From an uncultured Mollicutes bacterium (GTDB taxonomy: Bacteria > Bacillota_I > Bacilli_A > RF39 > UBA660): DNA of 21,115 nt. The translations under genes and the position numbers were made by a program. This document shows positions 1,680 through 21,115 of this stretch, piece by piece (the stretch's first letter is position 1; each line of letters begins with the position of its first letter). The stretch spans positions 1 to 21,115 of the forward strand of contig CAMMVQ010000021.1 in assembly GCA_946500425.1 (NCBI GenBank), given 5' to 3'. A model generated the notes under the pieces. It did not search any database. It saw nothing but the letters and a program-made list of their open reading frames with translations, and was not told the origin of the DNA.

Positions 1680-1704
1680 AAAAACACGACTAATTCGTGT
1701 TTTT
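1680..1704 (-). terminator. Weak intrinsic terminator overlapping the recG stop codon
   Basis: The minus strand reads aaaaACACGAattagTCGTGTtttt. The stem is 6 bp, extendable by A:T pairs, with a 5-nt loop containing the TAG stop. Confidence 0.35.
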
Positions 1705-3618
1705 ACAATATTCATTCACGTCATCTCTTACTTTTAATATTAAGTCATAATCTTTTTTTATGTCAGATAACTTAAATGATAGTTCGCCACTTTGCCTAAC
1801 CCCAAAAATATCTCCTTGACCACGAAGTTTAAAATCAGCTTCACTTATTTTGTAGCCATCATTAGTCTCTTCCATTATCTTTAATCTTTGAACATCTTTA
1901 TCACTTATAAGATAGCAATAAGATTGTAAGTCATTTCTTCCCACCCTTCCTCTTAGCTGGTGTAAGGTAGAAAGTCCAAACCTATCAGCATCAAAAATAA
2001 CCATTATGGTAGAGTTTTTAACATCTACACCAACCTCAACCACCGTGGTAGATATTAAAATATTTATTTTATTTTCCAGGTACTCTTGCATAACTTTATC
2101 TTTTTCTTCGTTAGAAAGCTTCCCATGTAATATTCCCACCTTATAGTTCTTAAAAGCCAAATCAAACTTACGTTTTAAATCATTTACGTTGGTATAGTCT
2201 TCTTCATTTTCATCAATCATAGGTGCAATTACGTACGCTTGATTACCATTTTTTAAAGCTTCATAAATAGCACTTAAAACGTCTTTTAACTGTTCTGTTT
2301 TCTTTACATAAGTAATAACCTTCTTTCTTCCCTTTGGCATGGTTTTAATGCTTGAAACGTCCATGTCTCCATAAAGCGTTAGCGCGTAAGTTCTAGGAAT
2401 TGGCGTTGCACTCATCAAAAGAACGTCCGGACTTTTTGCCTTATCTTTTAAAGCAAGCCTTTGTGAAACTCCAAAACGATGCTGCTCATCAGTTATTACT
2501 AATCCTAAATTATTCCAAAGTACGTTTTTGCTAATTAAAGCATGGGTTCCAATTAAAAAATCAATTTGACCACTTTCTAATTTTTCATAAACCTTTTTCT
2601 TTTCTTTAGTACTCATTTTACCTGTCAATATTCCAACTCTAAAGTCTGTGCGAGAAAATAGTTTAATGGCGTTTTGATAATGTTGAAACGCAAGTATCTC
2701 GGTAGGCGCCATTAAAGCTGATTGAAATCCAGCAGTAAAAGCAGCGTAAGCAACTATAAAAGCCACGATTGTTTTTCCGGAACCCACGTCTCCTTGAAGA
2801 AGCCTATTCATTCTTACGTCAGACCTTAAATCGTCTAACATGTCATTAATAACCTTTTTTTGGTCAGAAGTAAGTTCAAAAGGAAGTGAACGTATTAATT
2901 CTTCAACTTTTTTCTCATCAAAATCTTTTACGTAAGATAAGTCATGTTTTTTATTCTTGGTTTTTAGCTCCTTTACCTTTTTCATGTAACCATAAATTTC
3001 TTCGTACTTTAGCGTTTTTAAGGCGGTTTTTAGCACTTTTACATTATCTGGAAAGTGAATTATTCTTACGGCTCTATCCTCATCAATAAAACCGTATTTA
3101 ACTTTTAATTCTTCTGGAATTAAATTCTCTTTTTTATAACTTACTAAAGCATTTTTTATAAATAAATTCATTTGTTTAGAAGTTATGTGCTTAGACGAAT
3201 GATAAACCGGAATTATTTGCGGTTTATCGGGAAGACTAGATAACAAGATGTCGCTAGCAACAAGGGTTTGTGTTTTTGGGTTATACTTTCCAATTACGGT
3301 TACTTCTTTGCCAGGATAAACATTATTTTTCATAAAAGCCCGGTTAAATATAATCACCTTAATCAAATGGTTTTGAGCGATAAACGAAAAAGACAAACGG
3401 TTCATGTTTCTTTTAAAAAAACTGATTACTGGGCTTGTTTGAACAACACCATCAATCACCATGTCATCATAAAACCTTTCATCATTAATGTTCTTCCTTG
3501 AAAGTATCTCAAAACGATACGGATAATTTCTAACAAGGTCATCTACCGACAAAATTCCCATCTCCTTTAGATGTTCCAAACTCTTGTCTCCAATTAATTT
3601 TACGTCACTTAGTTCCAT
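1690..3618 (-). CDS. recG: ATP-dependent DNA helicase RecG
   Basis: The protein has Walker A GDVGSGKT, a DEQHRFGV (DEAH-type) box, a QLRGRVGR motif and an N-terminal wedge/OB region. The track ORF starts at 3675. I prefer the ATG at 3618 (MELSDVK), which sits 7 nt after AAGGAAG. Confidence 0.93.
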   Translation of the reverse strand: MELSDVKLIGDKSLEHLKEMGILSVDDLVRNYPYRFEILSRKNINDERFYDDMVIDGVVQTSPVISFFKRNMNRLSFSFIAQNHLIKVIIFNRAFMKNNVYPGKEVTVIGKYNPKTQTLVASDILLSSLPDKPQIIPVYHSSKHITSKQMNLFIKNALVSYKKENLIPEELKVKYGFIDEDRAVRIIHFPDNVKVLKTALKTLKYEEIYGYMKKVKELKTKNKKHDLSYVKDFDEKKVEELIRSLPFELTSDQKKVINDMLDDLRSDVRMNRLLQGDVGSGKTIVAFIVAYAAFTAGFQSALMAPTEILAFQHYQNAIKLFSRTDFRVGILTGKMSTKEKKKVYEKLESGQIDFLIGTHALISKNVLWNNLGLVITDEQHRFGVSQRLALKDKAKSPDVLLMSATPIPRTYALTLYGDMDVSSIKTMPKGRKKVITYVKKTEQLKDVLSAIYEALKNGNQAYVIAPMIDENEEDYTNVNDLKRKFDLAFKNYKVGILHGKLSNEEKDKVMQEYLENKINILISTTVVEVGVDVKNSTIMVIFDADRFGLSTLHQLRGRVGRNDLQSYCYLISDKDVQRLKIMEETNDGYKISEADFKLRGQGDIFGVRQSGELSFKLSDIKKDYDLILKVRDDVNEYCKNTN

Positions 3619-3721
3619 TAACATTCTTCCTTTACTATCAAGATTATAACAAACAATTGTTTGCAAATCAACCAATCAAGTTTTTTAAATGAAATTTTTT
3701 TAAAAAATATTAAAAAAAGAG

Positions 3722-3750
3722 TTGACTTTTAGCCTCTTTTCGATTAGTAT
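3722..3750 (+). promoter_or_regulatory. Candidate sigma-A promoter
   Basis: TTGACT (3722-3727), a 17-nt spacer, then TAGTAT (3745-3750). It is preceded by an A/T-tract resembling an UP element (3681-3720). The -10 matches consensus at only 4 of 6 positions. Confidence 0.35.
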
Positions 3751-3756
3751 AAATGT

Positions 3757-3856
3757 CACCAGCAGGAAGAATACTGCTGGTGCTAGTATCACAACTAGCC
3801 AACCCCTTTTTATTCTTTTTGAGATTGCATGGGAAACCGTGCAATCTTATTTTTTT
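3757..3856 (+). ncRNA. Candidate structured small RNA or leader of about 100 nt with three hairpins, the last an intrinsic terminator
   Basis: Hairpin 1 is CACCAGCAG gaagaata CTGCTGGTG (3757-3782). Hairpin 2 is GCTAGT atcaca ACTAGC (3782-3799). Hairpin 3 is the terminator. I could not match it to any known RNA family by eye. Confidence 0.35.
3821..3856 (+). terminator. Strong rho-independent terminator
   Basis: GAGATTGCATGG GAAA CCGTGCAATCTT, a stem of about 12-13 bp with a GNRA tetraloop, followed by aTTTTTTT (3850-3856). The minus-strand reading has no T-run. Confidence 0.7.
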
Positions 3857-3857
3857 G

Positions 3858-3887
3858 GAATTTTTTTACTATTTATGGTTAATACTA
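3858..3887 (+). promoter_or_regulatory. Possible forespore (sigma-G/F type) promoter for the ger operon
   Basis: GAATT (3858-3862), an 18-nt spacer, then AATACTA (3881-3887). The sigma-G consensus as I recall it is GHATR-17/18-CATnHTA. The match is partial and the context is AT-rich. Confidence 0.2.
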
Positions 3888-3906
3888 TTTTAAAAAGAGG
3901 GATAAT

Positions 3907-5346
3907 ATGACAAGTTCTAACAAACGAGAAAAAATTGTAAATACACTTAAAGAAAAAACTAATAACGCACCTGATATTAAGTATAAAGATTTTATAATAA
4001 ATAAACAAAACGTAACTTTTATATACTCGATGAGTGTGAGCAGTTCAACTAGTATAAATGATTTTATCCTAAGACGACTAGATGAGGAAAAAGGAAAAAT
4101 AAAAGATGAAAACATATACGAGTACATCAAAAATTTCATTCCTAACAATAACATTATTCCCTTTGATAAAAAAGAAGACATCTCTTATTACGTTATGAGT
4201 GGTTTTACCGTAGCAGTATTTGATGACGGAAGACTTTTGGCGTTTGAAAACCGTGCTAGTATTTATGGTTCGATTAGCAAAAGTGAAAACGAGCGAGGGC
4301 TTAAAGGACCTAGTGACGCATTTTCAGAAAACTATCAATTTAACATGGGAATGATAAGAAGAAGGGTAAAAACCGAGGACTTATGGATTGATGAAAAAAC
4401 CATTGGAACAAAAAGTAAAACCAAGGTTGCAATGTTTTATATAAAAGGTTTAACCAGTGAAGAAACAATAAGAAACATAAATGAAAAGTTAGACAAAATA
4501 AACATAGATTACGTGGGTAATACCAATTATATTTTAGAAGCAATGAGTAATACTAATAGATTCATCCTTCCTACTAACTTATCTACGGAAAGGCCGGATT
4601 TCGCGGCCCAGATGTTAATGCAAGGAAGAATTGTTTTAATCGTTGAAAACTCTAACGAAGCAATCATATTACCTTGTCTTTTCTTAGATTTCTTTAAGAA
4701 TCCAGAAGATTATTACGAAAAGGGACTTAACGTTATAATAAGTAGAACCGTAAGGTTTGTTGCGTTTTTTCTTACCGTATTTACCCCGGCCTTATACATA
4801 TCACTTATGGCTTTTAACTGGGAATCACTGCCAAGTGGACTTTTGATTAGTTTTTCCGTTCAAAGAGAAGGAGTTCCGTTTTCTTCAATCTTTGAAATTT
4901 TAGTAATGAGTTTGATGTTTCAAATTTTAAGGGAAAGTGACCTTAGGTTTCCTGGTAAAGGAGGTAGCTCAATTTCAATCGTTGGGGCTTTAGTATTAGG
5001 TCAAGCGGCCGTTGAAGCCGGTGTTGTCTCTCCAATTACGATAATAATAGTTGGTATAGCTTCAGTTTCATCACTTGCCTTTAGTTCGATTGACCTCATT
5101 AATGCGTGCCGGTGGTGGCAATTATTTTTAATAATAATGGCATGGATGTTTGGTTTTGTCGGAGTACTATTCGGAAGCTTAATAATACTAGCCACCCTAG
5201 TTAGCCAGTCTTCTTGTGGAGTTCCTTACTTTTCACCATTTGAACCATTTAGTTTAAAAGAACAACCAAACGTAATAATTCCAACCAAAAAAGAAAAATT
5301 TCATCCTAAAAATATTTTTAAAAAAGATGGGAGGAAAGAAAAATGA
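3907..5346 (+). CDS. Spore germination protein, GerA-family A subunit
   Basis: 479 aa. Family-typical stretch ERPDFAAQMLMQGRIVLIVENSNEAIILPCLFLDFFKNPEDYYEK, followed by C-terminal transmembrane segments. RBS AAGAGGG lies upstream. Confidence 0.9.
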   Translation: MTSSNKREKIVNTLKEKTNNAPDIKYKDFIINKQNVTFIYSMSVSSSTSINDFILRRLDEEKGKIKDENIYEYIKNFIPNNNIIPFDKKEDISYYVMSGFTVAVFDDGRLLAFENRASIYGSISKSENERGLKGPSDAFSENYQFNMGMIRRRVKTEDLWIDEKTIGTKSKTKVAMFYIKGLTSEETIRNINEKLDKINIDYVGNTNYILEAMSNTNRFILPTNLSTERPDFAAQMLMQGRIVLIVENSNEAIILPCLFLDFFKNPEDYYEKGLNVIISRTVRFVAFFLTVFTPALYISLMAFNWESLPSGLLISFSVQREGVPFSSIFEILVMSLMFQILRESDLRFPGKGGSSISIVGALVLGQAAVEAGVVSPITIIIVGIASVSSLAFSSIDLINACRWWQLFLIIMAWMFGFVGVLFGSLIILATLVSQSSCGVPYFSPFEPFSLKEQPNVIIPTKKEKFHPKNIFKKDGRKEK

Positions 5347-6548
5347 AACTAATCAAAATTTTAGTATTATTGCTAACCCTTATTAGTCTAACTGGTTGTT
5401 ATAACTATAAAGAGTTAAATGATTCAGCCATAGTATCTGCCATGTCCATAGATTTAGATGAAGATAATCCAGAAAAATATAAAGTTGGGGTTCAAATTAT
5501 GAACGCTAAGAAAAAAGAAAATAATAACGTTAGTGAAATAGCTTTTTTTGAAGCTTCTGGATTGTCAATTTATGACGCTTTAGGTTCAATTGTTCTTTCC
5601 TCCCCCAAACAACTATATCTAGGGCACATGGAAGTGGTAGTTCTTGGAGAAAAAATTTTAAAGCAAAAAAGTCCGCTTGACTTTTTAGACTTTTTCATGA
5701 GGGATTCAAGTGCGGAGAAAGATGCTGTTGTGGTTGTTTCAAGAGAAAAAAACGCAAGTGACATATTAAAAATATTAACCCCACTTGAAACAATAACATC
5801 TCAAAACCTAAAAGCAAGTTTATTTAACTCAGCAGATTTTAGTGGGACAACTAACATCGTAACGTTAGATGAATTAATCTCACATTTAATGGATGACAGC
5901 AAAGAAGCCATCTTACCGTCGGTTGAACTTACCGGGAAAGTAAATAAAGGGGAAAACATTGACAATTTATCAGACAGTGACCCGGATGTAAGAATAAGGT
6001 TTAGCAATCTTGCATTGCTAAAAGATGATAAATTAATTGGTTACTTAAGCAACAACGAAAGCTTTGGTTATAACGTAATTACCGCGGAAGCAGGAAATAC
6101 TTACATAAAATTTAAGTGCGACAACGAAAATTATGCTACTTTAGAACTTGTTTCTTTAAAAACTAACGAAGAAATATCATTTAAAAATAAAAAACCATTT
6201 GTAAACATTAACAACGAAACCAAAACAAACATAGTTGAATATAACTGTGATTTAGACCTCATAAAAGACGATAAGATAATTGATGAAATACAAAAGAAGG
6301 CAGAAAAAAGAATTGAATACTTAATGAATGATTTTTTGGATAAAGCATACGAAGAATACAAAACTGACGTACTACATTACGGCTCTACTTTTTATAAGGA
6401 AAAAAGAAACGAAATGAAAAAGTATGGTTACACAACAAAAAGTATCAAGGACGACATAAAGTTTAAAGTCACTTCAAAAGTTAAAGTAGACGCGGCAGGA
6501 TTAACCGTTAAATCAATTAATAACAAGGAGGATAAACGTGAAAGATAA
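5343..6548 (+). CDS. Spore germination lipoprotein, Ger(x)C-family C subunit
   Basis: 401 aa. Lipobox LISLTGC followed by YNYKELNDSAIVSAMSID, typical of GerAC-type proteins. An ATGA overlap with the A subunit suggests translational coupling. Confidence 0.85.
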   Translation: MKLIKILVLLLTLISLTGCYNYKELNDSAIVSAMSIDLDEDNPEKYKVGVQIMNAKKKENNNVSEIAFFEASGLSIYDALGSIVLSSPKQLYLGHMEVVVLGEKILKQKSPLDFLDFFMRDSSAEKDAVVVVSREKNASDILKILTPLETITSQNLKASLFNSADFSGTTNIVTLDELISHLMDDSKEAILPSVELTGKVNKGENIDNLSDSDPDVRIRFSNLALLKDDKLIGYLSNNESFGYNVITAEAGNTYIKFKCDNENYATLELVSLKTNEEISFKNKKPFVNINNETKTNIVEYNCDLDLIKDDKIIDEIQKKAEKRIEYLMNDFLDKAYEEYKTDVLHYGSTFYKEKRNEMKKYGYTTKSIKDDIKFKVTSKVKVDAAGLTVKSINNKEDKRER

Positions 6549-7629
6549 AGTTTCAAGCATTCAGGTTGCCATGCTTTTTGCGCTCGTGGTAAGTAGCATG
6601 TACCTTGGTCTTGGTGATATTATTCTTCTTGACATATCAAAAAATGACGCCTTAATATCCATGATAATTGGTATTATATTGGGATTAGTACCATTACTAA
6701 TGTATTTAAAAATAAACGATTGTTTTCCTGAATTAAACATATATAAAAAAAATAAAAAATTATTCGGAAACTTAGTTGGAAAATTATTAAACTTCTTATT
6801 TGTAATATTGTCCTTTATAATGATTGTCATTGCTTTTAGGTCCTTAATAACCTTTATAAATAGCAAATACCTAAGCGATACTCCTTACTATTTAATTGGA
6901 TTATTAGTCTTAGTAACATCAATTATATTATCAACTGGAAAATTAGAAAAACTAACTAGGGTAACACAAATAATATTTATAATAGCATTTATCTTAATTA
7001 TTTGTGTGGAACTATTTCTATCTGGTTACATAGAAATAGATAACTTGCTTCCTATCCTTACAACGAGTAAAGGAAATATATTATATGGAGCATTATACTA
7101 TGCTTCACTTACTTCTCTTACCTCTTTTTTCTTTTTGTCAATAAATAAATCAAAGATAAAAGATCATGAAAAATTTTCTAAAAACATGATAATATTTTAC
7201 TTAATAGCAACCGTATCATTAACTATCGTTATGTTTTACATAATAAGCTGTTTCGGATATGAATTAGCTTCAATATTTGAATATCCAGAGTACGTGATAC
7301 TTAAAAAAATAATTATCTCAAACTCGGATTTTCACATTGAAAACATTTTGTCCTTCAGGTGGATTTTCTACATTATTTCTCTTTCTAACATAGGTATATA
7401 CTCAATTAAAAAATGGTTAGAAGAAAGTAAGTTTACTAATAAAACGCAAATCACAATAGTAATTATAATATCATTGCTAGCTCTTTTCTTATCAAAAAAC
7501 ATATTTCCAAACGACCCAAACTCAATTATAGTATTTAAAAATTATTATTTAATCATTGTTGCGGTACCTATATTTATTATTCTATTAATTATCTATATAA
7601 GAAGCTTATTCATAACAAAAAGAACCTGA
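6538..7629 (+). CDS. Spore germination protein, GerAB-type (APC permease-like) B subunit
   Basis: 363 aa polytopic membrane protein with about 10 hydrophobic segments and an N-terminal KVSSIQVAMLFALVV motif. GTG start at 6538 follows AAGGAGG. Confidence 0.85.
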   Translation: MKDKVSSIQVAMLFALVVSSMYLGLGDIILLDISKNDALISMIIGIILGLVPLLMYLKINDCFPELNIYKKNKKLFGNLVGKLLNFLFVILSFIMIVIAFRSLITFINSKYLSDTPYYLIGLLVLVTSIILSTGKLEKLTRVTQIIFIIAFILIICVELFLSGYIEIDNLLPILTTSKGNILYGALYYASLTSLTSFFFLSINKSKIKDHEKFSKNMIIFYLIATVSLTIVMFYIISCFGYELASIFEYPEYVILKKIIISNSDFHIENILSFRWIFYIISLSNIGIYSIKKWLEESKFTNKTQITIVIIISLLALFLSKNIFPNDPNSIIVFKNYYLIIVAVPIFIILLIIYIRSLFITKRT

Positions 7630-15168: not shown

Positions 15169-15184
15169 ACTATCATCTCCTAAA

Positions 15185-15350
15185 TATAAGCAAGTACTAT
15201 AATATATTGTAACTAGCGAAATGTAGGAGTATTACGTGAAGCGTAAATTACTACATTGAGCGTTATCAATATAATGTATTTATTTAGTATTTCTTACTTT
15301 AGCGACTCGCTAAAAAGATTTTTATAAAATCAAAACGCTGCTTGCTTACA
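15185..15350 (-). ncRNA. Predicted retron msr-msd non-coding RNA
   Basis: It sits directly upstream of the RT and ends 17 nt before the ATG. The termini form the a2/a1 duplex: TGTAAGCAAG (15350..15341) pairs with CTTGCTTATA (15194..15185), 10 bp including one G:U. The 5' half holds msr-like hairpins GATTTT ata AAAATC and TTTAGC gagtc GCTAAA. The 3' half holds an msd-like long hairpin AATGTAG..TTACG cttca CGTAA..CTACATT (15257..15220). TATAAT at 15361..15356 lies just upstream. Confidence 0.65.
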
Positions 15351-15400
15351 AGAATATTATATAACAAAATATAAAAATTTACTATTTAATTCAATCTATT

Positions 15401-16514
15401 TTAATCCAATCTCTTTGTATTCTTTTTAATTTTATTATTATTAATAATACTTATAATATCACTATCTTCTATGGTTTTTGATGTTTTAAAAAATTCTTTT
15501 ATATCAAAAGTTATGCTTTCTACATCATAATTATCAGGATCAAATCCTAACTTTTTCATCTTATCTATTATTACGTGTTTGCCAGAATGCACACCAATTA
15601 CCATACTATCAACGTATATTCCATATCTTTTAGGATCCATTATCTCATACGTTTTTTTATTTTTTAAGACACCTGCCTGGTGAATTCCAGCCTCATGTTT
15701 AAAAGCGTTAGCACCAACTATTGGCTTATTGTGTTGTACGGATGATCCGGTTATAGAAGAAACTAGCAAGCTCGCCTCATAAATCATTTTAGTATTAATG
15801 TTTGTTTTAGCATTATAATATTCTTTTTTAGTATCTAGGTTTGCAACCACTTCTTCCAAAGCAGTGTTACCAGCTCTTTCATCAATTCCGTTTATCGTGC
15901 ATTCTACTTGTGTTACTCCTGCTAAAATGACACTCATAGAATTTGCCGTTGCAAGTCCCAAATCATTATGACAATGAACTGATATATTTACCTTATTCAA
16001 ATTACTATTTTCCTTTAAGTAAATTATAAATGCTCTAAATTCATCTGGTGATGTATATCCTACCGTGTCCGGTATATTAATCGTTATTGCACCAGCTTTA
16101 ATTGCTTCATCAATTACTTTACAAGCATATACCTTATCAGTCCTTGTTGCATCTTCCAAAGAAAACTCTATATCATAACACTTTTCTTTAGCATAACTAA
16201 CAAATTCTTTAACCATTTCTAAAACTTCTTCTTTTGTTTTTCCTAGCTTATCATAAACGTGCGTATCACTTGTTCCTATAAAAACATGTATCCTTGGTTT
16301 TTTAGCATCCCAAGCCATGTTCTATATCACGTTTATTAAGCCTTGCAAGTGATGCAACAGATGCGTTATTAACTACCTTACTTATTTCTTTTATCGATTC
16401 AAAATCACTATAAAAGGTGCTTCTAAAGTTTATTTGTTTTACTTCATATTTATCATTTTTAAGTTCTAGTTCTATGTCGTCAATATATCTCATAACAATA
16501 TCAGCTCTAGTATA
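15401..16514 (-). pseudogene. 2-isopropylmalate/citramalate/homocitrate synthase-like (HMGL/LeuA family) pseudogene, 5'-truncated and frameshifted
   Basis: ORF 15401..16318 carries HCHNDLGLATANS, INGIDERAGN (canonical INGIGERAGN) and HEAGIHQ. ORF 16302..16493 carries the preceding ..DFESIKEI..ASVASLARLNKRDIE segment in another frame. Deleting one nt near 16319-16320 restores ..RDIEMAWDAKKPRIHVF... The catalytic N-terminal DTTLRDGEQ region is absent, and an in-frame stop lies at 16515-16517. Confidence 0.75.
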
Positions 16515-16519
16515 TCAAT

Positions 16520-17141
16520 CTAGTAAACCCCAATTATCATAAAAGCATAATAAGATATAGGAAGTTTTACTTTATTTATAAAGTCCATATCTCTTTTAAG
16601 TAATATATCTTCAGTAGTGAAGTTTAATTGTTCTGCTTGTGAGCTTTTTAATAATTTAGAATTAATCATTTCCATTTGATTTTCTATTATTTTAGATTCT
16701 TGTTTAAATTCTTCTTCAGTAAATAATTCATCAATATATGCTTTTCTAATTCTCTCTTTTTTATTATTTAATTTCTTTAATTCTTTTTCTAATTGTTCTT
16801 TAGGATTATCTACTTTTGATTTTAAAACCGGCAAAAAGAATTCATTAACGACATTATCGTATTCTAATATATCATAAAGTAAAGTTTTAATTTTTTCTTC
16901 GTTTTTCATAAATATCAAATTCTTTTATCAAAAAAGAGGAGACAAAAGTACTTACAAGTAATACCATATTATCTTTTTTTACAATAATTCTATGTGGTTC
17001 TTCTATACTGATATTGGTATTATTAATTTTAATAAGATGTCCCGGTAAAAAATTGATTTTTAAGTTTCCTGTACTAATTTTCATTTTAATTTTGTCTTTA
17101 ATTTCACAGGGAAAAGATAGTTTTGTTATGACTGTTTTCAT
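16520..17141 (-). pseudogene. Probable C-terminal remnant of a large serine recombinase (degenerate zinc-ribbon and coiled-coil region), frameshifted
   Basis: ORF 16520..16918 has the coiled-coil pattern ..LEKELKKLNNKKERIRKAYIDELFTEEEFKQESKIIENQMEMINSKL.., typical of large serine recombinase C-termini. ORF 16887..17141 (..PCEIKDKIKMKISTG..NISIEEPHRIIV..) fits a decayed zinc-ribbon segment. Deleting one A from the A5 run (plus T5 16902-16906) fuses the two ORFs (..DIYENEEKIKTLL..). No resolvase catalytic domain is present. Confidence 0.4.
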
Positions 17142-17166: not shown

Positions 17167-17199
17167 GAAAAAAGTCCATAGCATCAAATACTATGAACT
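17167..17199 (-). terminator. Rho-independent terminator about 125 nt downstream of the STAND gene
   Basis: The minus strand reads AGTTCATAG tatttgatg CTATGGACT TTTTTc. The 9-bp stem has one G:U pair, which would be a C:A mismatch on the plus strand. Confidence 0.6.
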
Positions 17200-17323
17200 T
17201 TTCTTTATATAGAAATCGCCAAATGTGCGACTTTCAACTTCAATGGAGCGAATCACATACAAGTTACGAACTATGTTCTCTTTCTAAAAGTTATTATAAA
17301 TCTAATTATATTTTTTATCAATA

Positions 17324-20300
17324 TTAATTGTAAAAATCGTCTAAATATTCCTTAATTTTTGTCTTCTTGATATCTTCTTTATACCAATCTATTATAGAGT
17401 TTATATAATCAATGTGAAAAATATAGTTTATATCACTTTTAATTAAAATTTTATTTTTTAAACTTTCTAAAAATTCAATTTTATTTTCGATCAATGGTAT
17501 TCTACTATTACTCCATGATTCAGAACGTGAGAAAAAATTAATAGTTTTAAATATTTCTATATCATTATTTAATTCTAACAAATACAATATTAATTCTTCT
17601 TTTGTTTTTTTATCTCTTTCGCATATTATATAAAAAACAGTTTTAATTTTTTCTTTATCCTTATTATTAAATTTAATATATTCTTTTAACCATTTATTTT
17701 GTATTTTTTTGATATTATCGTCAGAGTAATTGAATAAATTATGTAAATCAAAATAACCAAAATTTGAATCTAAGATTTCGTTATATATTTTTGTGATTAA
17801 AGCATTTGAATTATTATCATTCCATACATTTTTAATAATTTCATGTATATTACCATTATGATTAAATCCTTTATTTTTGAGAATTTGTCTAAAAAATATA
17901 TAATTGTTTTTAACTAGTAAAAATCCCATATATCCATTATGATCAACAAAACTATTTACAATTTTCAAGTATAATTGTTCTAATATATCCTTATTATTAA
18001 ATGCATTATATATTTTTTTTATTTCTTCAAAGTTATCTGTTAGATTGTTGGTATAACTTACTATTAGGCTAAATTCATCTAAATTAAGTATTTCTTTTGT
18101 ATAATTTTCAACTATAGAAGAATCATATATCGAATAATTTACAATTGTTGATAAATTTAGTGTATATTTATCTTCCATATCCTGCTGTTCTTTTAAAAAA
18201 CATTTAACGTTATTCAGGTATTTTTCATCTACTAATGAATTAAAAAAGAAGCTTAAAAAGAAATATTTTGAATTACTATTACTTTTAACTAATAAATTAA
18301 TGATTTCATCTTTATTATCTATTGAGAGTAAATAATTTGGGTATGAATTGAATGGACAATCATAATTTAAATAGTATGCAAAAACTTCTCTAAATATATC
18401 AACTTTATTTTTAATAATATATTTAAATAACAGTGTAATTGAATTTTTAATTTTCCAATCATCTACTTTAACTTTATCATTCTCTACTTTTTTTAAAATT
18501 TTAAAAAAATATTTATAATCCATTGATGATGCTTTTACTAAAAGTTCGTTTAACTCGTGATTTTCTTTATCATAATCATACTTTTCAAAAATTCTTAATG
18601 TGCTATATTCTTTATTTTTTTTATAATTGTTTATTGATTCTGTAACAGAAATATCTCTTTGTTTACACATCTTTTCAATAAAATCTAACACCTTACATTG
18701 AGAAATATTAGGTTTTTTCCATTTGCAGAATAGTTCCTTTTCTAATATTTGAAAATCATTTTTTATGATATCAACTTGTTCATCTTTATGAGGCCATATA
18801 GAATAATCCATTAATAAGCTTATATAATTATGGTCATCTATGTATATTTTTATAAATACATCAAATAAGAATTTTCTAAACTGAAATAAATTTTTACAAG
18901 GTTGTAAAGTGATTGTTATAAGATTTAATGTCCTAAAATTTTTACCTTGTTCACTTATATGAAATTCTGTTTCTAAACAATATTTTAATGATTTTATTAA
19001 TATTAGTTTTAATATACTATTATATTTATTCTTTTCGTTATATATATCAAACAATATTGAAATAATACTTGTTTCAAGTTTGAAATTTTGATTTTTATCT
19101 TTCATCAACCAAGAATCTTTTATACTTTTGCATATTTCATTATATAAATCGGGTCTTTTCATTAAATATGAAATTAGTAACTTAAATGCTATTTCGGAAT
19201 AATCAGAATTCTTGATGTCTGCTAATATCTCAAGTATTTCGTCATTAATATAAACATTATCATTATAGTGTATTTCTTGTGGAATACTTGCTTGTTTCTC
19301 TGATTTTATTTTACTATCTATAATAGTTAATGTTTTTGGAATATTTATGTTGTGAAATAGCTTAAAAAACAAATCATCATTTTTATAATCATCTTTTTCC
19401 CAAACAGTATTTATTTCACTTGTTACATACTCTAATTCATCAAAGCTGTAAAACAAATCATTTATCATATTAATAGCATTTATAAATTTTCTTATAAAGT
19501 TTGGATATATTTGTATTAACAAATCAGAAATTTTTATTTCTTTCATTTCTATTAAATATTTATATATTATATAATTTGCAAAATTTTGATCACTAATTTT
19601 TATTGCTTCATTATTATAAAATTCTATTAATTCTAAATATCTTAAATTTTTAAATTCTTCAATGTCATATATTTCAATGTTTTTTAATGTATCTTTTATT
19701 TCTTGATTTTCAATACTGAAAGGAGAAAAAAGAGAAATATAAAATAATATTTTTATTTGAAAAGTTGAAAGTTTATTTTCTTCTATAATTCTATCATAGT
19801 AACTTTTAAATACATCTAATATATTGTTTAAATATTTTATTTTCCCGTCTAATATTGATTGTGAAGCCATTACAGCAATTCTAGGATTACCATTTGAAAT
19901 TTTTAATATTTGTTGTTGTACTTTTTTGTTTTTAATATTAAAAGATTTTTCAAGTATTTTTATAATATCGCTATCTTCCATTTTATTCAATGTATAAACT
20001 TTTGGAATTATATTATTATTATTTAATTTACTTAAAATTTCATTCAAAAGGTAGTCTCTTATTGTAGCTACAACTTTTATGTTTTTATTTTTATTAGTAA
20101 TTATGCAATCAATAAAACTTTTAAGTTGATGTAAATTATTAATATCATCTATAAATATTAAATAATTTTTATTATTCTCTAATGCTGTTTTGATATCATC
20201 ATATATATCTTTCCCGTTTGGTCTAATACATAAGCAGCATAAGTCTTCTTTATTTTCCAAATACTTACATATTTCAATTGCAATTTTAGTTTTACCTATT

Positions 20301-20935
20301 CCAGCTTTACCTGTAAGTAATAATAGTGTTTCGGTATCATTAATGTTATTAATAATCTCTTTTTTTTCTTTTCTTTCAATATATTCTAAAGATAATGGAG
20401 AATTAACAGAAAATTTGTCATATCTTTTTATAAAATCTTCTATATCACTTATTTGATTAGTATCAATAGGTATTTGTAAATGATCATTTGCTATACTTTG
20501 ATAATTTTCACAAATATCGTGAGCCATTGAATCTATATCAATCAGTTCTATATTTATATCATTATATAACGTTTTTAATCTATTATAATCTCCAGGCTTT
20601 ATGTTCGTATTTGTATGAAAGCAAATAATTTCTTTAATCTTATCTGATGATATTCCTGTTTTATTTTTAGAATAAGCTTCTTTAATATCCTTTTCTAATT
20701 TAGATATAGATTGTTTTTCTACAGTTCCATACATAAGTAAAGAATATGTGCCATCTTCATTAATATTATATGAATCTGGGATTCCCTTAGTTGTTTTATT
20801 TGTTCCTTCTTTGCTACCTATATCGTGTATATTTTTATAATTTTTTTTCTTTATAATGTAATCGGCACAAAATCTTTGATATTCTCCAGGACCTAGTCCT
20901 AAAATACTTTGCTGTATTTTTAAAAATTTAGACAT
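17324..20935 (-). CDS. Large STAND/NB-ARC-like P-loop NTPase with an unassigned N-terminal domain and a long helical C-terminal region (Avs-like antiphage candidate)
   Basis: 1203 aa. Walker A is LLLLTGKAGIGKTK (GKAGIGKT maps to 20288..20311, checked against the DNA). Walker B is NYLIFIDD (20144..20161). These are followed by KVVATIRD and a GxP-like ISNGNPRIAV. The N-terminal roughly 160 aa has GEYQRFCADYII..KGIPDSY..SLLMYGTVEK. About 800 aa of Asn/Lys/Ile-rich helical sequence follows the NTPase. A strong RBS AGGAGG lies upstream. Confidence 0.75.
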   Translation of the reverse strand: MSKFLKIQQSILGLGPGEYQRFCADYIIKKKNYKNIHDIGSKEGTNKTTKGIPDSYNINEDGTYSLLMYGTVEKQSISKLEKDIKEAYSKNKTGISSDKIKEIICFHTNTNIKPGDYNRLKTLYNDINIELIDIDSMAHDICENYQSIANDHLQIPIDTNQISDIEDFIKRYDKFSVNSPLSLEYIERKEKKEIINNINDTETLLLLTGKAGIGKTKIAIEICKYLENKEDLCCLCIRPNGKDIYDDIKTALENNKNYLIFIDDINNLHQLKSFIDCIITNKNKNIKVVATIRDYLLNEILSKLNNNNIIPKVYTLNKMEDSDIIKILEKSFNIKNKKVQQQILKISNGNPRIAVMASQSILDGKIKYLNNILDVFKSYYDRIIEENKLSTFQIKILFYISLFSPFSIENQEIKDTLKNIEIYDIEEFKNLRYLELIEFYNNEAIKISDQNFANYIIYKYLIEMKEIKISDLLIQIYPNFIRKFINAINMINDLFYSFDELEYVTSEINTVWEKDDYKNDDLFFKLFHNINIPKTLTIIDSKIKSEKQASIPQEIHYNDNVYINDEILEILADIKNSDYSEIAFKLLISYLMKRPDLYNEICKSIKDSWLMKDKNQNFKLETSIISILFDIYNEKNKYNSILKLILIKSLKYCLETEFHISEQGKNFRTLNLITITLQPCKNLFQFRKFLFDVFIKIYIDDHNYISLLMDYSIWPHKDEQVDIIKNDFQILEKELFCKWKKPNISQCKVLDFIEKMCKQRDISVTESINNYKKNKEYSTLRIFEKYDYDKENHELNELLVKASSMDYKYFFKILKKVENDKVKVDDWKIKNSITLLFKYIIKNKVDIFREVFAYYLNYDCPFNSYPNYLLSIDNKDEIINLLVKSNSNSKYFFLSFFFNSLVDEKYLNNVKCFLKEQQDMEDKYTLNLSTIVNYSIYDSSIVENYTKEILNLDEFSLIVSYTNNLTDNFEEIKKIYNAFNNKDILEQLYLKIVNSFVDHNGYMGFLLVKNNYIFFRQILKNKGFNHNGNIHEIIKNVWNDNNSNALITKIYNEILDSNFGYFDLHNLFNYSDDNIKKIQNKWLKEYIKFNNKDKEKIKTVFYIICERDKKTKEELILYLLELNNDIEIFKTINFFSRSESWSNSRIPLIENKIEFLESLKNKILIKSDINYIFHIDYINSIIDWYKEDIKKTKIKEYLDDFYN

Positions 20936-20971
20936 ATTTAACCTCCTTTCTTTTCTTTTTAATGTATCTTT

Positions 20972-21115
20972 TTAAAAAATATTACTTAATAACATCCAAT
21001 TATCATTTTCCATATCTTCTGTATATTCTGTATTACATAAATATAATGAATCATTCTTATCGTAATCTCTAACAAATCCCCAATTTACATTATACTTTTT
21101 AGCATATTCTTTTAA
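20972..21115 (-). CDS. Hypothetical protein, C-terminal 47 aa only (5' end beyond window). It lies 36 nt upstream of the STAND gene.
   Basis: Own translation of the minus strand from the window edge gives LKEYAKKYNVNWGFVRDYDKNDSLYLCNTEYTEDMENDNWMLLSNIF, with stop TAA at 20972-20974. It shares strand and composition with the STAND gene, and I saw no terminator between them. Confidence 0.45.
   Translation of the reverse strand, partial: LKEYAKKYNVNWGFVRDYDKNDSLYLCNTEYTEDMENDNWMLLSNIF

Follow-up and report, generated by a model that had tools for sequence, protein, structure and literature searches.

A probable Avs-type immune sensor with a restriction-endonuclease-fold head in a mobile Type III restriction-modification cassette

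We analyzed a 21,115-nucleotide stretch of DNA from an uncultured Mollicutes bacterium (contig CAMMVQ010000021.1 of assembly GCA_946500425.1, positions 1 to 21,115; hereafter the window), the right-hand end of which carries a gene for a 1203-amino-acid STAND NTPase. This protein is probably an autonomous Avs-type immune sensor that would act as a single polypeptide, belong to an uncharacterised family, carry a nuclease-fold head and work by a mechanism analogous to that of Avs3 and Avs4. Two features of the Avs functional class, an effector-NTPase-sensor architecture and a neighbourhood of defence and mobile-element genes, were found, and the family is a new one within a known class of phage defence, not a new kind of defence. 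In this genome the STAND gene closes an acquired Mod-Res-STAND cassette, in which it probably provides a second, independent layer of defence after Type III restriction-modification (R-M).

By analogy with Avs3 and Avs4, and following the general rule described for at least 90 STAND families (PMC13581612), we infer that the variable C-terminal alpha-solenoid would bind a ligand of phage origin, with a conserved phage protein as the likeliest candidate, and that ligand binding would relieve the autoinhibition of the STAND NTPase. The ATP-bound protein would then oligomerise, and oligomerisation would unite the N-terminal PD-(D/E)xK-fold domains into an active nuclease, with degradation of DNA and abortion of the infection as the predicted outcome.

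Architecture and conservation of the STAND protein

Direct support for an Avs-type sensor comes from the three-domain anatomy of the protein, its intact and conserved NTPase motifs and a conserved putative active site in its N-terminal domain. A preliminary description of the window, made from the letters alone, had proposed a 1203-residue open reading frame (ORF) with four STAND motifs, and all of these are present: Walker A GKAGIGKT (residues 209–216; nucleotides 20288–20311), Walker B YLIFIDD (residues 258–264; 20144–20164), VVATIRD (residues 288–294; 20054–20074), which contains the sensor-1 residue R293, and the GxP motif GNPRIAV (residues 349–355; 19871–19891). In an alignment of 33 full-length homologues, with identities down to 20%, the motif residues G212, G214, K215, D263, D264, T291, R293, N350 and R352 were invariant in all 33. 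Pfam matched the window protein to nSTAND_NTPase5 (E 6.5e-8) at 32.9 bits against a cut-off of 34, did not match it to nSTAND3 and returned nothing for residues 1–185 or 300–1203. Across the family, matches at E ≤ 1e-3, always in the NTPase region, were obtained to nSTAND3 (28 of 33 members), nSTAND5 (27 of 33) and NB-ARC (15 of 33).

An AlphaFold2 (AF2) model of residues 173–1203, built on a family alignment and confident, with a predicted local distance difference test score (pLDDT) of 88.1, shows a P-loop domain and, after it, a helical domain, a winged-helix-like domain and finally an alpha-solenoid of ~730 residues, which carries one beta-hairpin at about residues 657–676. When this model was searched with Foldseek, the best match in the PDB was EcAvs4 (8dgf, E 1.9e-9), followed by the archaeal STAND-TPR protein 6mfv, EfAvs5 (9jap), SeAvs3 (8dgc) and the AVAST5 filament (9nc9); further matches were ORC/Cdc6, NLRC4 and NRC3, and the solenoid proteins Ski3, CRM1, FANCI and Ycg1. 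The Walker A and Walker B motifs, the GxP helical domain with its winged helix and this structural likeness place the protein in the STAND superfamily. The models and the Foldseek search, with EcAvs4 as the best solved match, also bear out the Avs-like three-part architecture that had been proposed, and the C-terminal region, previously described as helical and repeat-like, proves to be an alpha-solenoid in them. Near the C-terminus of the otherwise variable solenoid we observed a strongly conserved motif, SWSxSxxP (residues 1138–1150; 17486–17524), in which S1144 and P1147 are invariant and around which the family consensus reads LFPxxxSWSGSxIPxIE; the motif might make an autoinhibitory contact or form a ligand site.

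Residues 1–172 are predicted to adopt the PD-(D/E)xK restriction-endonuclease (REase) fold. Their AF2 model, built on the family alignment (pLDDT 85.7, predicted TM-score 0.80), has the topology a-a-b-b-b-a-b-a-b-a and contains the alpha-beta-beta-beta-alpha-beta core of that fold (helix 16–31, strands 36–38, 55–58 and 64–69, helix 76–88 and strand 100–107). Foldseek searches of the PDB retrieved Card1 (E 2.4e-3) as well as PspGI, EcoO109I, R.BspD6I, HamA and Can2, and the nuclease domain of EcAvs4 (8dgf_B, probability 0.99) gave the highest query TM-score among the matches listed (0.51). In the BFVD viral models a phage 'restriction endonuclease' was found (E 2.1e-4, query TM-score 0.52), and essentially all meaningful matches in the two databases have the REase fold. 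At the sequence level, none of the N-terminal domains of 31 members had a significant Pfam match (one of the 31 matched Mrr_cat, at E 0.19), and the profile of the domain found no relevant match among PDB sequences.

Homologue alignments showed G40, G51, P53, D54, K79 and D83 of this domain to be invariant and G17, Q20, Y26, G44, K47 and Y64 to be nearly so. P53-D54 directly precede strand 55–58 and thus occupy the classical 'PD' position, where strand 2 begins, and K79 and D83 lie one turn apart on the helix that follows strand 3. Conservation is highest in the N-terminal domain, with a mean pairwise identity of 42%; the NTPase reaches 37% and the solenoid, which is the least conserved part, 25%, a gradient that is expected for a conserved effector joined to a fast-evolving sensor. 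The preliminary description had likened a pattern in this region to Mrr/PD-(D/E)xK nucleases. That pattern is present and the fold was recovered by AF2 and Foldseek, but E73-K74 ('VEK') was rejected as the catalytic (E/Q)xK because it varies across homologues. The same description had named the lack of an effector-like N-terminal fold as a contrary sign; a predicted REase fold was found.

Several points weigh against an Avs-type sensor with a nuclease head. Strand 3 reads LLMYG (M68-Y69-G70 in the window protein) and glutamate at position 68 occurs only in some distant clades, so that the strand offers neither the canonical (D/E)xK nor its (D/E/Q)xK variant; for catalysis the protein would have to rely on K79 and D83 of the next helix. 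The Foldseek E-values of the N-terminal domain are modest (2e-4 to 1e-2), and the fold assignment therefore rests on the consistency of the matches and on the topology. The large model reaches only low global TM-scores (~0.2), which is to be expected when a multi-domain protein is flexible. With the full protein at E ≤ 1, PADLOC returned no Avs profile, only mad8 (1e-4, in the P-loop region) and TRIP13, and NCBIfam gave P-loop noise only; the family profile searched against PDB sequences at E ≤ 0.1 recovered only generic P-loop proteins and no chain of Avs3, Avs4 or Avs5. Membership in Avs1–5, as had been suggested for checking, thus found no support by sequence. Family members are named in databases solely as 'hypothetical protein', 'ATP-binding protein' or 'nSTAND3 domain-containing NTPase', and a literature search that included accession numbers yielded no paper or experiment on any of them.

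The strand-3 sequence bears on a second reading, which we consider rather unlikely, namely that the REase-fold domain is no nuclease effector and serves as a dead DNA-binding or oligomerisation module or as a DNA sensor, the protein having some other output such as NTP depletion or recruitment. Such a domain would accord with the missing (D/E)xK, with the variable E73-K74, with the lack of a nuclease Pfam match and with several non-catalytic proteins among the fold matches, for example the RPB5 N-terminal domain and Zip2-Spo16. However, the invariance of P53-D54, K79 and D83 and the near-invariance of Q20 and K47, across phyla and down to ~20% identity, indicate a conserved functional site, and the domain that holds them is the best conserved of the protein and occupies the effector position of Avs proteins. 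The i, i+4 spacing of K79 and D83 after strand 3 recalls the GDxnERKx3D signature of XPF/Mus81/Hef, which we take as a lead only.

The Mod-Res-STAND cassette and the genomic context of the family

An Avs-type role is also directly supported by the defence-island and mobile-element context and by the fixed architecture of the family. As the preliminary description had noted, an ORF that runs off the window ends shortly before the STAND gene, with its stop codon at 20972–20974, 36 nt before the ATG, and 47 codons inside the window. We identify it by sequence comparison as the C-terminus of the Res subunit of a Type III R-M system. Its 47 amino acids are 91% identical (tblastn) to the C-terminus of a 732-amino-acid DEAD/ResIII protein in the related locus L002 (L002:2236–4434), which matches PADLOC REase_III (E 8.9e-16) and has the C-terminal motif YPDFIV...IIETKG. 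The gene before this protein matches MTase_III (E 1.7e-122), and the protein itself precedes, with the same 36-nt spacer, a STAND homologue (P0003) that is 80% identical to ours. The unit in this lineage is therefore Mod-Res-STAND, and, judging from loci L001–L009, the full Res and Mod genes would lie upstream of the window. The 36-nt spacing also occurs in L002–L009, and a terminator scan found no terminator-like site between res and the STAND gene, so that co-transcription is likely; a GGAGG sequence (20942–20946) lies 6 nt 5' of the STAND ATG.

Among relatives with at least 78% identity, Mod-Res-STAND moves as one cassette of ~7.7 kb. In blastn comparisons of the window with L002–L009, an identity of 83–84% extends from 21115 to 17225 or 17243, and nothing further was found. 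L002 and L005, which belong to independent contig families, share exactly the DNA that begins at the Mod start codon and ends ~80 nt beyond the stop codon of the STAND gene, with the exception of the target-recognition region of Mod, which is swapped: the central part (about amino acids 220–393) of the Mod at L002:1008–1716 is wholly different from that of L005 in cassettes that are otherwise 82–86% identical, consistent with a target-recognition domain swap and hence a changed methylation specificity. In related contigs the cassette adjoins either a small helix-turn-helix (HTH) gene or a serine recombinase and an integrase; tblastn with four serine-recombinase genes of related cassettes (L002, L005 and L010) found no recombinase gene in the window. 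The low G+C content of the STAND gene, 0.203 (20.3%) compared with 0.326 (32.6%) in recG and 0.274 over the whole window, agrees with the AT-richness reported previously and, together with the mobile cassette and the defence islands, upholds the earlier view of an acquired module.

The proposal that the STAND gene has its own terminator was supported in part. RNA folding placed an AU-rich hairpin of 17 bp, with a U run behind it, at 17168–17204, ~120 nt beyond the stop codon, but a consensus terminator scan found no terminator 3' of the gene; the hairpin lies outside the DNA common to the same cassette elsewhere, in which similarity stops at 17225–17243. Inside the zone where this similarity ends, we observed on the reverse strand (17213–17233) a 7-bp GC-containing hairpin, AAGUCGC...GCGAUUU, with no U tail, which might mark the junction of the inserted cassette.

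To place the gene in the context of its family, we surveyed 84 loci in which the sequence available upstream spans 2.5 kb or more and which fell into 45 distinct upstream contexts; the 80 metagenome loci derive from a tight N-terminal alignment and are biased towards (gut) Firmicute relatives with 42–100% identity in the N-terminal domain. In ~20 of the 45 contexts a recognised defence gene lies no more than 4.5 kb upstream (this and the other survey figures are raw counts, uncorrected for background). Besides the Type III genes, the genes found upstream include Type I HsdR of two unrelated families, Type IIG enzymes, an MmeI-type IIL enzyme at 3 nt, EcoRV with a D12 methylase, DpnII and C5 methylases, GmrSD/Orf5-like genes, an Avs2 gene, PDC-S53, PDC-M62, a TIR protein, a patatin and an Ssp-like PAPS-reductase/DUF4007 pair; the other contexts hold unrelated or unannotated neighbours. 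Members of the family are also carried near serine recombinases and integrases and on plasmids. In the P0023 clade (51% identical), for example, only an 84-amino-acid HTH gene lies upstream, in an element that holds a serine recombinase, TnpV and a NikA-like gene, and on Leptospira plasmids the STAND gene stands alone. These contexts provide strong guilt-by-association evidence for a role in defence, and their variety argues against a fixed partner. Conserved non-defence synteny, which the preliminary description had named as a contrary sign, was not seen among them: the neighbours vary, and defence and mobile-element genes are enriched in the raw counts. In one locus (L103:40–3990) the upstream neighbour of the STAND gene matches PADLOC Avs2 (E 1.1e-34), so that two different Avs-type genes are adjacent.

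The preliminary description had further suggested a two-gene module with an unknown partner. This part did not hold: the upstream ORF is the Type III Res, and Mod/Res genes were found in one of the 45 context clusters (12 loci) and were absent from the other 44. A tblastn search of the loci placed Res/Mod homologues only beside STAND genes at least 78% identical to that of the window (L001–L009 and the window itself), and the STAND gene lacks them in all of the more distant lineages examined. The co-occurrence check of the gene pair that had been proposed thus turned out negative, and a dedicated two-gene system was ruled out because the pair fails to co-occur across the family.

Restriction genes nevertheless recur immediately upstream, and it is on this that another reading, of rather low probability, builds: the STAND protein would be coupled to the neighbouring R-M system instead of sensing autonomously, either guarding the restriction enzyme and firing when a phage anti-restriction factor inhibits it, as PrrC does for EcoprrI, or depending on R-M in some other way. 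The nearest upstream gene is a same-strand restriction gene at <100 nt in 6 of the 45 context clusters (30 of the 84 loci), namely Type III at 36 nt, Type I at 66 and 14 nt, Type IIG at 20 and 94 nt and Type IIL at 3 nt (representative loci L002, L020, L035, L073, L074 and L088), and the STAND gene is always the last, downstream gene; in addition, Mod-Res-STAND is inherited as one block with its 36-nt spacer and no terminator. The restriction partners, however, are of four mechanistically different types and from unrelated families, which makes it unlikely that one conserved protein physically guards them all, and more than half of the contexts, such as the Leptospira plasmids, the P0023 clade with its small HTH gene and P0057, have no nearby R-M gene. 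R-M genes are, moreover, the commonest defence genes, so that adjacency to them is expected in defence islands.

We regard as quite unlikely the bolder proposition that the family has specialised as a 'tail gene' of R-M operons of Types I, IIG, IIL and III, a backup for when restriction fails or is inhibited, with a non-canonical PD...KxxxD nuclease and a sensor fold that has no named relative. Finally, it is highly improbable that the protein is a non-defence STAND, such as a MalT- or AfsR-like transcriptional regulator or a housekeeping ATPase: defence and non-defence clades are interspersed in the superfamily tree (PMC13581612) and the literature search found no experiment on the family, but its members are spread patchily over the taxa, no metabolic synteny is conserved, the varying neighbours are rich in defence and mobile-element genes, and no HTH or other DNA-binding regulator domain occurs in any of the 33 members. 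A housekeeping or HTH-bearing regulatory family, which the preliminary description had also considered, was found neither for the window protein nor for these members in Pfam, and an HTH-bearing regulator was ruled out on that basis.

Distribution of the family and other features of the window

Homologues of the probable immune sensor are numerous. A search of 5.8 billion proteins gave 147 matches at E ≤ 1e-3, of which the full-length ones listed are mostly 1190–1270 amino acids long; they come from Clostridia, Paenibacillus, Staphylococcus, Enterococcus, Streptococcus and the Bacillus cereus group, as well as from Deinococcota, Arcobacter and a Bathymodiolus (gill) symbiont. A scan of a genome collection, which used an unspecific P-loop pattern and contributed 18 loci, added homologues from Bacteroidota, Acidobacteriota and Saprospiraceae, and tblastn found the family on 13 Leptospira plasmids and one B. 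cereus megaplasmid. The family was in no deposited phage genome of the collection searched by tblastn, and two IMG/VR contigs carry a family gene. The spread is patchy, with members in Firmicutes, Bacteroidota, Leptospira plasmids, Acidobacteriota, Campylobacterota, Deinococcota and the gill symbiont, and the closest STAND homologue with an organism name belongs to an Oscillospiraceae metagenome-assembled genome.

Among 1.84 billion cluster representatives (50% identity), the N-terminal-domain profile matched 1338, 640 of them at E ≤ 1e-30. In the best 150 of the 1338, the domain is always at or within ~30 residues of the N-terminus and most proteins are 1190–1260 amino acids long, the shorter ones being probably fragments; the architecture thus appears to be fixed across the family. 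The family is large, with no fewer than 640 clusters at 50% identity; it is frequent among human-gut Firmicutes and also occurs on plasmids of Leptospira and Bacillus cereus. Current PADLOC and Pfam profiles miss it except for its P-loop. The finding points to no new principle, and its specialist interest lies in the non-canonical active site of the nuclease fold, the sensor with no named relative and the recurrent attachment to restriction operons. Characterisation would extend the catalogue of bacterial pattern-recognition receptors by a Gram-positive Avs family, would yield profiles for two unannotated domains and would test whether the gene recurs behind restriction operons because defence is layered or because the two are truly coupled.

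The right-hand end of the window is a small defence island, with Type III R-M, the STAND gene and a retron (Table 1). The retron-type reverse transcriptase (RT) gene lies ~2 kb downstream of the STAND gene, with no recognised retron effector gene adjoining it; its neighbour encodes a cyclophilin-like2 protein. The 232-nt intergenic region upstream of the RT gene (15169–15400) shows a long-range pairing between UAAGCAAG and CUUGCUUA (15187–15194 and 15341–15348) around hairpins and could be the msr-msd RNA, but it folds no better than shuffled sequences (z -0.9), and an Rfam search of the window, this region included, returned nothing. Between the retron and the STAND cassette, the leuA ORF appears truncated at both ends and may be an insertion-site remnant. 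We also observed that a 79-bp stretch at 16888–16964, in the region of the two small ORFs, is 83.5% identical to L002:16365–16442, just upstream of the resolvase gene of L002, and that the second small ORF resembles by eye the coiled-coil tail of a large serine recombinase, a likeness for which tblastn with recombinases found nothing. At the other end of the window, the spore-germination operon indicates a spore-forming Firmicute host.

Table 1. Coordinates of the features discussed, numbered from the first letter of the window
Feature	Position	Strand	Basis or remark
STAND gene, Avs-like	17324..20935	(-)	Complete, 1203 amino acids, ATG start; PD-(D/E)xK-fold domain, STAND NTPase and alpha-solenoid
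N-terminal domain, predicted effector (residues 1–172)	20420..20935	(-)	AF2 and Foldseek; predicted PD-(D/E)xK fold
P-loop NTPase core (~residues 185–330)	19946..20383	(-)	Pfam nSTAND_NTPase5 and motif coordinates
Helical and winged-helix-like domains (~residues 331–470)	19526..19945	(-)	AF2 secondary structure, Foldseek
C-terminal alpha-solenoid, predicted sensor (~residues 471–1203)	17327..19525	(-)	AF2, Foldseek
AU-rich 17-bp hairpin and U run, possible intrinsic terminator	17168..17204	(-)	RNA folding
Type III Res gene (helicase-nuclease subunit), last 47 codons	20975..21115	(-)	Stop codon 20972–20974; gene start and Mod beyond the window
Spacer between res and STAND gene, 36 nt	20936..20971	(-)	Contains GGAGG at 20942–20946
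End zone of similarity to Mod-Res-STAND cassette, right-hand boundary of mobile unit	17225..17243		blastn
Retron-type reverse transcriptase, 319 amino acids	14209–15168	(-)	PADLOC RT_Ec107-like E 1.5e-115, RT_III-A 1.1e-99
leuA fragment	15401–16318	(-)	LeuA profile positions 92–388 of 516, E 7.6e-120, below cut-off
Two small ORFs, 84 and 132 amino acids	16520–17141	(-)	No Pfam or PADLOC match
recG, then opposite-strand spore-germination operon (GerXA-like, Ger(x)C, germination permease)	1690–7629		recG E 1e-231

Comparison with known defence systems

The closest known counterparts are EcAvs4 (AVAST type 4, 8dgf) and SeAvs3 (8dgc). Like them, the window protein combines in one polypeptide an N-terminal domain of the predicted PD-(D/E)xK fold, a STAND NTPase and a long alpha-helical C-terminal sensor region, and like them its family has a defence-island lifestyle. 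Avs4 senses the phage portal and Avs3 the terminase. The differences are that no sequence homology to either was detected (PADLOC Avs profiles at E ≤ 1; family profile against the PDB), that the window protein is shorter (1203 amino acids, compared with chains of 1534 and 2004), that it lacks the strand-3 (D/E)xK and has the invariant K79 and D83 on the next helix, and that its family occurs mostly in Firmicutes and gut bacteria rather than in Enterobacteriaceae.

Avs5 resembles the window protein in its NTPase, which lies in the same nSTAND3/nSTAND5 neighbourhood, and in structure. nSTAND3 is annotated in Avs5 and is matched by 28 of the 33 members of the window family, and both solved structures (EfAvs5, 9jap, and the AVAST5 filament, 9nc9) stand high in the Foldseek list. 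In contrast, the effector of Avs5 is a SIR2 domain that depletes NAD+, whereas the window protein has a predicted nuclease fold, and the window protein itself only comes near nSTAND5 (32.9 against 34 bits) and is unmatched by nSTAND3.

A parallel of a different kind is PrrC-EcoprrI, in which a suicide-type effector gene is likewise attached to an R-M operon; the window family stands last behind Type I, IIG, IIL or III genes in 6 of 45 contexts. PrrC, an anticodon nuclease, binds a single specific enzyme of Type Ic. The R-M partners of the window family, unlike EcoprrI, are of four types and often absent, and their association with the STAND gene is one of gene order.

Lee et al. (Nature 2026; PMC13581612) recently described 589 STAND clades, 198 of them defence-associated, with at least 90 sensor families, and named Avs1–24. 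The families named or tested there are mostly from Enterobacteriaceae, and none in the text has the present architecture in Firmicutes. The window family nonetheless falls under their definition of a defence-associated STAND, an immune-type effector together with neighbouring defence genes, and is probably among the clades they catalogued.

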